Of a stretch of DNA of 64,000 nucleotides, positions 8,235-8,633 are shown in pieces. The DNA is from Thermodesulfobacteriota bacterium (GTDB lineage Bacteria; Desulfobacterota; Binatia; HRBIN30; CADEER01), in the NCBI GenBank assembly GCA_041743795.1, contig JBGTMF010000623.1, positions 11,851 to 75,850 on the forward strand, written 5' to 3'. The notes beneath the pieces were generated by a model. It ran no database searches, had not been told where the DNA came from, and was given only the letters and a program-made list of their open reading frames with translations. A program made the translations under genes and the position numbers. The number at the start of each line of letters is the position of its first letter. The stretch's first letter is position 1.

Positions 8235-8633
8235 TTACTGCATGCCGCCCGCGGTGCTGTCGTAGTCGAACGTAGCGCCCGACCCGGCGTCCGAAGTCGC
8301 CGTACCCGTGAAGGAGGGCTCGGTGCCGCTGTTGTCGGCAGCCATCGTGGTGGTAACGGTCTCAGAGCCGCGGAATCCCGGCAGGCTAGCGCAACCACCG
8401 TCTTGATTCGCTTCCGTGCAGCCGATGTAGGCCAAGCTCGTGGCGAAGTACGCCTCTTCCGAAGTCGCCGCGTTGCGCAGGTCGGAGTTGGCTCGCGCGT
8501 CGAATCCGCGCTGACGGTACTGAGCGAACTGCGGGATTGCGATCGCGGCGAGAATACCGATGATCGCCACCACGACGAGCAGCTCGATCAGTGTGAACCC
8601 CTTGTCCTTCATCCGAATCGTGATTGCCTTCAT
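8235..8633 (-). CDS. pilA: Type IVa major pilin
   Basis: MKAITIRMKDKG|FTLIELLVVVAIIGILAAIAIPQF, the class III signal and conserved pilin N-terminal helix. AAGGAGG RBS 4 nt upstream of the ATG. Cys pair (IGCTEANQDGGC) is followed by a 45-aa Ser/Thr/Gly-rich tail. Confidence 0.9.
   Translation of the reverse strand: MKAITIRMKDKGFTLIELLVVVAIIGILAAIAIPQFAQYRQRGFDARANSDLRNAATSEEAYFATSLAYIGCTEANQDGGCASLPGFRGSETVTTTMAADNSGTEPSFTGTATSDAGSGATFDYDSTAGGMQ

Follow-up and report, generated by a model that had tools for sequence, protein, structure and literature searches.

Where it has been studied, pilus glycosylation bears on resistance to phages, on adhesion, and on the stability of the filament (bioRxiv 10.1101/150227; PMC7203116). 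The GT-C glycosyltransferase TfpW uses a lipid-phosphate-linked monosaccharide as donor and modifies pilin Ser and Thr residues at several sites (bioRxiv 10.1101/2020.04.19.049825), while three-component periplasmic glycosylation combines a polyprenyl-phosphate-sugar synthase, a flippase, and a GT-C enzyme (PMC11127046). The Thermus pilins PilA4 and PilA5 are both O-glycosylated on Ser; PilA5 also illustrates that a D-region is common, not universal, among type IVa pilins, as it lacks a classical one and has a loop-anchored disulfide, i.e., Cys60 (in the loop) to Cys88 (PMC7203116). In Myxococcus, pilA is followed by further genes in the order pilA-pilG-pilH-pilI-pilD, of which PilGHI have been described as ABC-transporter-like proteins without supporting experimental data (PMC6060248). 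Here we compare with these systems a pil locus from an uncultured member of the Binatia (GenBank assembly GCA_041743795.1, contig JBGTMF010000623.1, positions 11,851 to 75,850). This stretch of 64,000 nucleotides, hereafter the window, contains the major pilin gene pilA and, in the same locus, genes for a GT-C enzyme and a GT2 enzyme; a preliminary description had linked these enzymes to a Ser/Thr-rich tail of the pilin.

The pilA product is an ordinary, very small type IVa pilin and involves no new pilin architecture. Judged from its predicted structure and its conservation, the Ser/Thr-rich segment is very probably the canonical C-terminal beta-sheet head of a minimal type IVa major pilin, with the Cys pair lying in the alpha-beta loop. 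The prepilin consists of MKAITIRMKDKG followed by FTLIELLVVVAIIGILAAIAIPQFAQYRQRGFDARANSDLRNAATSEEAYFATSLAYIGCTEANQDGGCASLPGFRGSETVTTTMAADNSGTEPSFTGTATSDAGSGATFDYDSTAGGMQ, so that the mature protein starts with FTLIELL, and it shows the short basic leader ending in Gly, the hydrophobic N-terminus, Phe+1, and Glu+5 that typify this class; G12, F13, T14, L15, and E17 are invariant in the full-length homologue alignment (A1). The N-terminus matches the Pfam model N_methyl (PF07963, E 1.9e-10, 40.3 bits against a cut-off of 21.2), the protein also matches TIGR02532 (NCBIfam), and its first 70 residues match the NCBIfam model for myxobacterial PilA. In keeping with a type IVa system, the gene is encoded together with pilB, pilT, and pilC (upstream) and pilD (downstream). 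A Shine-Dalgarno sequence, AAGGAGG, lies 6 nucleotides 5' of the ATG at 8633. An alternative GTG start at 8693, which would give 152 residues, was rejected: the homologues begin at MK(A) and the Shine-Dalgarno sequence precedes the ATG.

We searched 5.8 billion proteins for homologues and obtained over 6,000 pilin-like matches, of which the best 120 were analyzed. These 120 share 63-100% identity with the query over 92-100% of its length and are 121-156 residues long (median 127); their source names point to Candidatus Binatia. The window pilin belongs to a large, uncharacterized family of minimal pilins. Mean column entropy across the 120 is 0.16 bits in the alpha1 helix, 1.15 bits in residues 84-132, and 1.74 bits in the Cys loop (residues 67-83), making the loop the most variable part of the mature protein. 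The length of the loop also varies; each Cys is kept in 96% of members, and about 4% of the family lack the Cys72/Cys81 pair yet retain the whole supposed tail. Within that segment, at least 92% of the members keep L84, P85, G86, F87, S90, T92, V93, M97, P106, F108, G110, S114, G117, F122, Y124, S126, G129, G130, and M131, and six of these positions (F108, G110, G117, S126, G129, and G130) are present in all 120. The conserved core positions along the strands mostly alternate with variable or Ser/Thr positions, a pattern that indicates beta strands packing on one face.

Structure prediction leads to the same picture. The AlphaFold2 (AF2) model built from the homologue alignment has a mean predicted local distance difference test score (pLDDT) of 85.7, with a helix at residues 15-66 and strands at 72-75, 93-100, 107-114, and 121-125; per block, pLDDT reaches 90-94 across residues 91-132 and is at its minimum (72-83) in the Cys loop. 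In this prediction, a long alpha1 helix packs on a C-terminal antiparallel beta-sheet, as in type IVa pilins generally. A Foldseek search of the PDB returned three significant matches, all of them pilins, namely Thermus TTHA1221 (4bhr_B, target-normalized template-modeling score 0.68), the gonococcal pilin 1ay2, and Thermus TTHA1222. When the PDB was searched with a profile of the pilin's C-terminal half, nothing significant emerged, the top match being ribosomal protein L19 at an E value of about 1 (chance); the case for homology between the head and solved pilins is therefore made by the fold and by an alignment with other phyla (A3). This alignment includes five other lineages, i.e., a deltaproteobacterial metagenome-assembled genome (MAG), Nocardioides, Egicoccus, a Nitrospinaceae genome, and a Gemmatimonadetes MAG, and in it the elements LPGF..S.TV.V.M,.F..TA.., ..F.Y.S, and GG.Q match the beta-sheets of those pilins column for column. 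When contigs were scanned with the full-length pilin alignment, the generic N-terminal motif dominated, and the matches listed were mostly unrelated pilins with no close relatives among them; the scan did yield distant full-length homologues (L003, L004, L008, L032, and L077).

The Cys pair had been taken for a D-region, a reading that these data contradict. The prepilin has only two Cys, at residues 72 and 81 within IGCTEANQDGGC, and none in residues 82-132; both lie N-terminal to the sheet, so there is no C-terminal D-region disulfide. In three of the five other lineages in A3, a Cys pair flanks or trails the sheet in the classical D-region arrangement, which the family of the window lacks. 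Cys72-Cys81 would instead be a small staple in the alpha-beta loop. The compositional observation behind the earlier claim held up in part: a 45-residue string (residues 88-132) does contain 16 Ser/Thr, along with 7 Gly and 6 Ala, but it does not directly follow the Cys pair, as ASLPGF, the six residues after Cys81, had been skipped and 51 residues in fact follow. The enrichment itself is real, with Ser/Thr making up 36% of the string against 11.9% in 13 neighboring proteins (binomial P = 3e-5). The compositional entropy of the string, 3.32 bits, falls in the lowest 4% of 45-residue windows in those proteins.

On the proposed maturation route, PilD would cut off the 12-residue leader to leave alpha1 (about 54 residues), the short variable Cys72-Cys81 loop, LPGF, and three to four antiparallel strands. 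The strands would pack on alpha1 through V93, M97, F108, G110, F122, and Y124, and the conserved C-terminus S-x-x-G-G-M-Q would close the head domain. From the alternation pattern, the Ser/Thr-dominated positions 107, 109, 111, 113, 121, and 123 probably face outward.

Both glycosyltransferases appear intact and look functional. The GT-C enzyme scores 37.7 bits against the Pfam model PF02366 (PMT; cut-off 22.7). A phmmer search of the PDB gave no match, and we therefore turned to fold comparison. Its AF2 model (pLDDT 93.9; predicted template-modeling score 0.94) has a polytopic membrane GT-C fold, and in Foldseek it is closest to ArnT (5f15, E 1.1e-6), with STT3, AftA, AglB, PglB, ALG9, and Pmt4 also found, all at probability 1.00, and ALG12 matched as well; the fold thus resembles both ArnT, whose acceptor is lipid A, and STT3/PglB/Pmt, whose acceptors are proteins. 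GT-C enzymes carry a catalytic acidic motif in the first periplasmic loop. In the model, an R-D-E motif occupies that loop just past the third helix; R96 and D97 are kept in 64/64 aligned homologues and E98 in 91%, and D97 is invariant in a 50-sequence alignment (A5). The protein has no Pfam tetratricopeptide repeat (TPR) match, and its C-terminal 100 residues are predicted to form a mixed alpha/beta domain.

The translated GT2 protein has two hydrophobic stretches or helices near its C-terminus, and its best PDB relatives are the polyprenyl-phosphate glycosyltransferases ArnC (E 3.5e-11), DPMS (5mlz), and GtrB (5ekp). NCBIfam matches to AglJ, PpgS, DPhHxTase, and ArnC all fall below the equivalog cut-offs. 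By analogy, GT2 would supply the synthase and GT-C the transferase of a periplasmic three-component glycosylation system. Wzy_C, the domain of PglL/TfpO-type O-oligosaccharyltransferases, had no match among the scanned proteins between pilA and pilD or in related loci.

We then compared the glycosyltransferase genes of related pil loci. Like the TfpW gene, the window's GT-C gene is encoded with pilA, between pilA and pilD; together with the GT2 gene it sits between the pilI-like and pilD genes. L001 has a PMT-like GT-C and a GT2 found by tblastn, L002 a TMTC_DUF1736+TPR GT-C, L083 a TMTC-like GT-C whose gene separates those of the ABC ATPase and permease, L084 GT-Cs of TMTC-like and MptA_B-like type together with unclassified polytopic proteins, and L085 TMTC-like and PMT-like GT-Cs with a GT2 and a flippase-family protein. 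A metagenome scan with the profile of the pilin C-terminal half produced 48 loci, which were considered informative if they contained the PilG-like gene and at least 3.4 kb downstream. Among the informative loci, a TMTC-like GT-C occurs in L091, L092, L101, L102, L116, L125, and L131, a PMT-like GT-C with a GT2 in L109 and L125, and two 12-14-transmembrane (TM) proteins of an unclassified family at the GT-C place in L094. L090 ends too early, and L128 is uninformative. Nearly all informative relatives thus have GT-C genes, of varying families, at this place of the pil locus. A recognizable GT-C is found in the window and, among pilin-selected loci with enough downstream sequence, in L001, L002, L083, L084, L085, L091, L092, L101, L102, L109, L116, L125, and L131. 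Conversely selected, GT-C homologues at 45-46% identity (L086 and L088) again lie in pil clusters with this pilin. Further afield, a distant pilin relative with 52% identity and a classical D-region (L003) has YfhO, PMT_2, methyltransferase, and GT2 genes beside pilA, and the Gemmatimonadetes locus has a GT2 directly upstream. At a single position of the pil cluster, GT-C families that are not orthologous therefore turn up repeatedly, at times splitting the ABC transporter genes. Such recurrence of unrelated GT-Cs at one place favors a pilus-related function, and does not by itself identify the acceptor.

Several observations were made alongside this survey. In relatives, a TPR GT-C of about 580 residues, mostly with TMTC_DUF1736, lies between the pilH-like and pilI-like genes and splits the transporter operon; TMTC-like and MptA/B-like GT-Cs were sought in the window and none was found. 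A family of proteins with about 500 residues, 9-14 TM helices, and 50-60% mutual identity also occurs in pil loci beside the ABC and GT-C genes; neither Pfam nor PDB sequences gave a match to this family, which may be an undescribed one of membrane glycosyltransferases or polymerases. In L001, the GT2 homologue (14964-15910; 87% identical by tblastn over residues 36-298) is called as two genes of 39 and 228 residues, which may reflect a frameshift, a pseudogene, or an assembly error.

The best overall explanation, which we favor with modest confidence, combines a folded pilin head with possible pilin glycosylation by the GT-C/GT2 pair. Its second part, taken alone, is evenly poised: by analogy with known systems, the pilin may be O-glycosylated in the periplasm by the GT-C of the locus, with a polyprenyl-phosphate monosaccharide supplied by GT2. 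On the cytoplasmic face, GT2 would attach a monosaccharide to polyprenyl phosphate; once this lipid-linked sugar had been flipped, GT-C would move the monosaccharide onto Ser/Thr of the pilin, still anchored in the membrane, on the periplasmic side and ahead of assembly by PilB. Proposed parallels for such a route are GtrB/GT-C, Ppm1/Pmt acting on actinobacterial proteins, and TfpW acting on Pseudomonas group IV pilins. Ser/Thr averages 29% of the head domain in the pilin family, and candidate acceptors may include the probably outward-facing positions 107, 109, 111, 113, 121, and 123, occupied by Ser or Thr in 62-92% of the family; S90/T92 or, in the loop, T73 and S83 may serve equally well. 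In Thermus pilins the mapped sites fall within the alpha-beta loop, as do the predominant ones of the Pa5196 pilin (PMC7203116; bioRxiv 10.1101/2020.04.19.049825). Animal TMTC enzymes mannosylate Ser/Thr on the beta strands of cadherin domains (PMC11292533), and a strand-located acceptor is on that account not implausible for the TMTC-like enzymes of relatives.

Other explanations of the segment itself fare poorly. The preliminary description had it as a low-complexity, linker-like extension past a complete pilin. A flexible mucin-like extension of this kind, with Cys72-Cys81 as the D-region and an O-glycosylated tail, would suit the high Ser/Thr/Gly/Ala content, the lowish compositional entropy, and the glycosyltransferase genes nearby. 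We nevertheless regard it as very improbable, since the segment is the only beta-sheet of the pilin: the mature protein has 120 residues, about 54 of them in alpha1, and taking away the supposed tail would leave no head domain. Prediction gives the segment regular strands at pLDDT above 90, some of its hydrophobic and Gly positions never vary among the homologues, and pilins from other phyla have a homologous sheet; the dispensable part is the Cys loop. The alignment suggested as a check on lineage specificity placed the segment in every one of the 120 homologues and against the sheets from other phyla, and so speaks against a lineage-specific tail. Nor do the 51 residues form a separate domain, the minimal pilin fold being incomplete if they are missing, which makes an added adhesive or polysaccharide-binding module just as hard to credit; pilin heads in general mediate adhesion, but nothing specific favors such a module here, and the C-terminal-half profile finds no carbohydrate-binding or other solved domain. 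Least credible of all, to the point of being negligible, is a spurious C-terminus arising from a wrong stop codon or frameshift, an earlier stop having been raised at the outset: many independent assemblies contain homologues whose C-terminus is the same G-G-M-Q to within 1-3 residues, and an intrinsic terminator follows 20 nucleotides past the stop.

The serious competitor to pilin glycosylation, though a less probable one, holds that the sheet is an unmodified, Ser/Thr-rich hydrophilic surface and that GT2/GT-C and the GT-Cs of relatives act on another acceptor, e.g., lipid A or a glycolipid (in the manner of ArnC/ArnT), an exopolysaccharide handled with the PilGHI-like ABC transporter, or a minor pilin or other pilus protein. 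A number of findings weigh on its side and against modification of the pilin. The best structural relatives of the two enzymes are ArnT, a lipid A modifier, and ArnC, making a non-protein acceptor possible, and several GT-C homologues are named '4-amino-4-deoxy-L-arabinose transferase-like' by the Joint Genome Institute (JGI). A 35%-identical GT-C with a GT2 (L087) lies in a polysaccharide ABC-transporter cluster of Wzm/Wzt type, not in a pil cluster, and one lineage (L115/L119) has only a soluble open reading frame (ORF) and no GT-C in the roughly 1 kb left past the permease gene. The Nocardioides homologue keeps the pilin domain with no glycosyltransferase in the 10 ORFs scanned within about 6 kb. 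Thr is frequent in beta strands of distant homologues, including Thr-rich positions on the corresponding strand, and composition alone is consequently weak evidence for glycosylation. No GtrA-like flippase gene was noticed between pilA and pilD, although no systematic search was made, and no paper mentioning both Binatia and pilin was found in the literature searched. On the other hand, pil clusters repeatedly contain GT-C genes from at least three or four unrelated families, some of them even placed between the pilH-like and pilI-like genes, which is hard to square with a housekeeping lipopolysaccharide role; no ArnA-, ArnB-, or ArnD-type genes were seen among the genes from pilA to pilD; and the Pfam match above threshold is to PMT, the protein O-mannosyltransferase family. 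The pairing of GT2/GT-C with a pilin substrate, put forward in the preliminary description, survives as a hypothesis, given that both genes lie inside the pil cluster and look functional and that a GT-C recurs in related loci, and it is plausible and better grounded than sequence alone had allowed. A bolder extension, which we consider unlikely as a whole, is that Binatia-type pil loci encode a dedicated, modular pilin glycosylation system in which interchangeable GT-Cs (PMT/ArnT-like, TMTC-like with TPR, MptA/B-like, YfhO-like, and unclassified 12-14-TM), with genes interleaved with those of the PilGHI-like transporter, would be fed by GT2, the transporter would act as flippase, and a conserved, outward Ser/Thr ladder on beta2/beta3 of the folded sheet would be the acceptor. 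If true, it would provide a function for PilGHI and a bacterial counterpart of the TMTC O-mannosylation of cadherin beta strands (PMC11292533).

The features of the locus are listed in the table below. All pil-locus genes are on the minus strand and are given in transcription order; pilA to pilD form a same-strand run.

Features of the pil locus in the window, followed by two gene families of related loci. Coordinates are those of the window or, where a locus is named, of that locus.
Feature	Coordinates	Strand	Details
pilB	13570-15288	(-)	T2SSE
pilT	12416-13816	(-)	T2SSE
pilC	10971-12236	(-)	T2SSF
Regulator, 700 residues	8865..10967	(-)	PilS-type 6TM + PAS + sigma-54 AAA+ + helix-turn-helix (HTH); Pfam 6TM_PilS, PAS_4, Sigma54_activat E 6e-73, HTH_8
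Sigma-54 promoter consensus	8730..8744	(-)	TGGCACGGGGGTTGC; 97 nucleotides upstream of pilA ATG; putative function
pilA	8235..8633	(-)	132-residue type IVa prepilin, 120-residue mature major pilin; from ORF and translation
Class III leader	8598..8633	(-)	12 residues, MKAITIRMKDKG; Gly-1 last, then Phe+1, Glu+5
Alpha1 helix	8436..8597	(-)	Prepilin residues 13-66; AF2 helix 15-66
Cys72-Cys81 loop	8391..8420	(-)	Alpha-beta-loop position, not D-region; putative disulfide
Beta-sheet head domain ('tail', residues 82-132)	8238..8390	(-)	Strands 93-100, 107-114, 121-125; C-terminal GGMQ
Intrinsic terminator	8188..8215	(-)	12-bp stem + T run, 20 nucleotides past pilA stop codon
PilG-like protein	7129..8052	(-)	Directly downstream of pilA; start at 8052 placed from relatives
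ABC transporter ATPase (pilH-like)	6203..7120	(-)	ABC_tran E 5.5e-32
ABC-2 permease (pilI-like)	5318..6088	(-)	ABC2_membrane_2 E 2.3e-12; start Met33 placed from 255-256-residue relatives
GT-C glycosyltransferase (PMT/GT39-like, ArnT-like fold)	3564..5321	(-)	PF02366, AF2, Foldseek
GT2, polyprenyl-phosphate sugar synthase-like	2572..3540	(-)	322 residues; PF00535 E 1.7e-29
PilD prepilin peptidase	1720..2508	(-)	82% identity (tblastn) to L001 region; L001 gene has A24_N_bact + Peptidase_A24
Minor-pilin-like gene, GspH/FimU-like	1189-1635	(-)	GspH PF12019 E 4e-7
Two minor-pilin-like genes	845-1192, 237-860	(-)	Putative; hydrophobic N-termini and synteny with L001, L083
Operon-splitting TPR GT-C	L083 13199-14941; L084 12363-14180; L086 7582-9240; L088 7487-9235		Also L091, L102, L125, L131
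9-14-TM family	L084 14188-15648; L091 7109-8674; L094 12250-13767, 13722-15173

By its signals, pilA appears to be monocistronic, driven by sigma-54 and ended by a terminator of its own, an arrangement that would be expected for a major pilin. The upstream site reads TGGCAC-N5-TTGC, one of only two perfect matches in the window, and a gene for a sigma-54 activator lies directly upstream of pilA. The promoter and the intrinsic terminator bracket the gene, supporting its stop codon as real. The other perfect match, at 4475-4489 (-), lies within the GT-C coding region and could be a chance occurrence or an internal promoter for the GT2 and pilD genes. After the pilA terminator, a sigma-70-like promoter (10/12 matches) lies at 8063-8090 (-), just 5' of the proposed PilG-like start, which suggests that the PilG-like, ABC, and glycosyltransferase genes form a transcription unit apart from pilA.

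A second pilin gene was sought in the window and none was found, so pilA is single copy there; some relatives have two or three tandem paralogues of the short pilin (L083 10001-11179; L088 465-2134), and orphan copies lie away from any pil genes in L113, L121, and L132. Pfam detected no histidine-kinase or receiver domains in the regulator, which from its domain content would be a one-protein PilS/PilR fusion replacing the two-component pair as a one-component system. The same 6TM-PAS-sigma-54-HTH fusion is encoded in L001, L083-L086, and L003. The PilG-like protein has no Pfam or NCBIfam match; its relatives, at 45-65% identity, occupy the same position in all pil loci examined. Elsewhere in the window, an ORF of 695 residues at 21976-24063 (-) matches PF10712 ('NAD-specific glutamate dehydrogenase', E 4e-178), but it is antisense to dnaK at 22030-23943 (+) (HSP70, E 3e-275) and is hence a shadow ORF, not a gene.

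The interest of these findings lies in the locus, in that an uncultured lineage consistently places GT-C genes and a lipid-sugar synthase inside its pilus cluster. Were the pilin the acceptor, PMT/ArnT-like and TMTC-like enzymes would join TfpW, from which GT-C pilin glycosylation has been known to date, and a role would be suggested for the poorly understood PilGHI ABC transporter.

Among described pilins, those of Thermus are closest in form. PilA4 (TTHA1221; 4bhr, 6xxd) and PilA5 (6xxe, 8qqj) have a similar mature size of 111-125 residues and the same architecture, i.e., a sheet of four or five strands preceded by alpha1 and an alpha-beta ('glycosylation') loop; 4bhr_B is the best Foldseek match, and the family profile aligns to 6xxd and 8qqj. 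Head-domain identity is low, however (23% in the Foldseek alignment), and the Cys pairs differ: the window pilin has both Cys in the loop, PilA5 joins the loop to strand 3, and PilA4 joins strand 2 to the C-terminus. The mapped Thermus sugar sites are likewise in the loop, not the sheet, set against a glycosylation that is only predicted for the window pilin. Among PDB sequences, alpha1 is matched best by Geobacter PilA-N (geopilin domain 1; 2m7g, 6vk9, 7tgg), at E 2.5e-26 over profile residues 2-66. Geobacter PilA-N ends after alpha1 and its head is a separate protein, PilA-C; in the window pilin, by contrast, the head is covalently attached.

In gene order, the locus most resembles the Myxococcus xanthus cluster pilB-pilT-pilC-pilS-pilR-pilA-pilG-pilH-pilI-pilD, the window having pilB, pilT, pilC, the regulator, pilA, and the genes for the PilG-like protein, ABC ATPase, and ABC-2 permease, then pilD. 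Both the order and the ABC domains fit PilGHI, while the PilG-like protein, which matches no model, is likened to PilG by position. The window differs in its fusion of PilS and PilR and in the GT-C and GT2 genes inserted before pilD. The pilins also differ in size: the solved M. xanthus PilA chain has 208 residues (8tj2), against 66 residues in the head domain of the window pilin, and 'large pilin subunits' figure in the title of the M. xanthus PilA paper (PMC11046646).

As for the enzymes, a glycosylation system that worked like TfpW or Gtr-type systems is plausible by analogy. As in Pseudomonas aeruginosa with group IV pilin and TfpW, a GT-C is encoded with pilA; TfpW is itself a GT-C with a TPR domain, and related Binatia-type loci encode a GT-C+TPR of similar size, about 580 residues. 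The window GT-C, in contrast, lacks a Pfam TPR match and is PMT/ArnT-like rather than Emb-like in the families it matches, its gene lies four genes downstream of pilA instead of adjoining it, and the donor would come from a GT2 of ArnC/DPMS/GtrB type instead of the DPA pathway. The GtrB/flippase/GT-C and Ppm1/Pmt systems offer the further likeness that a GT2 with C-terminal membrane helices adjoins a GT-C with an acidic motif in its first external loop; they differ in that the acceptor here would be a pilin, rather than O antigen, teichoic acid, or a Sec substrate.

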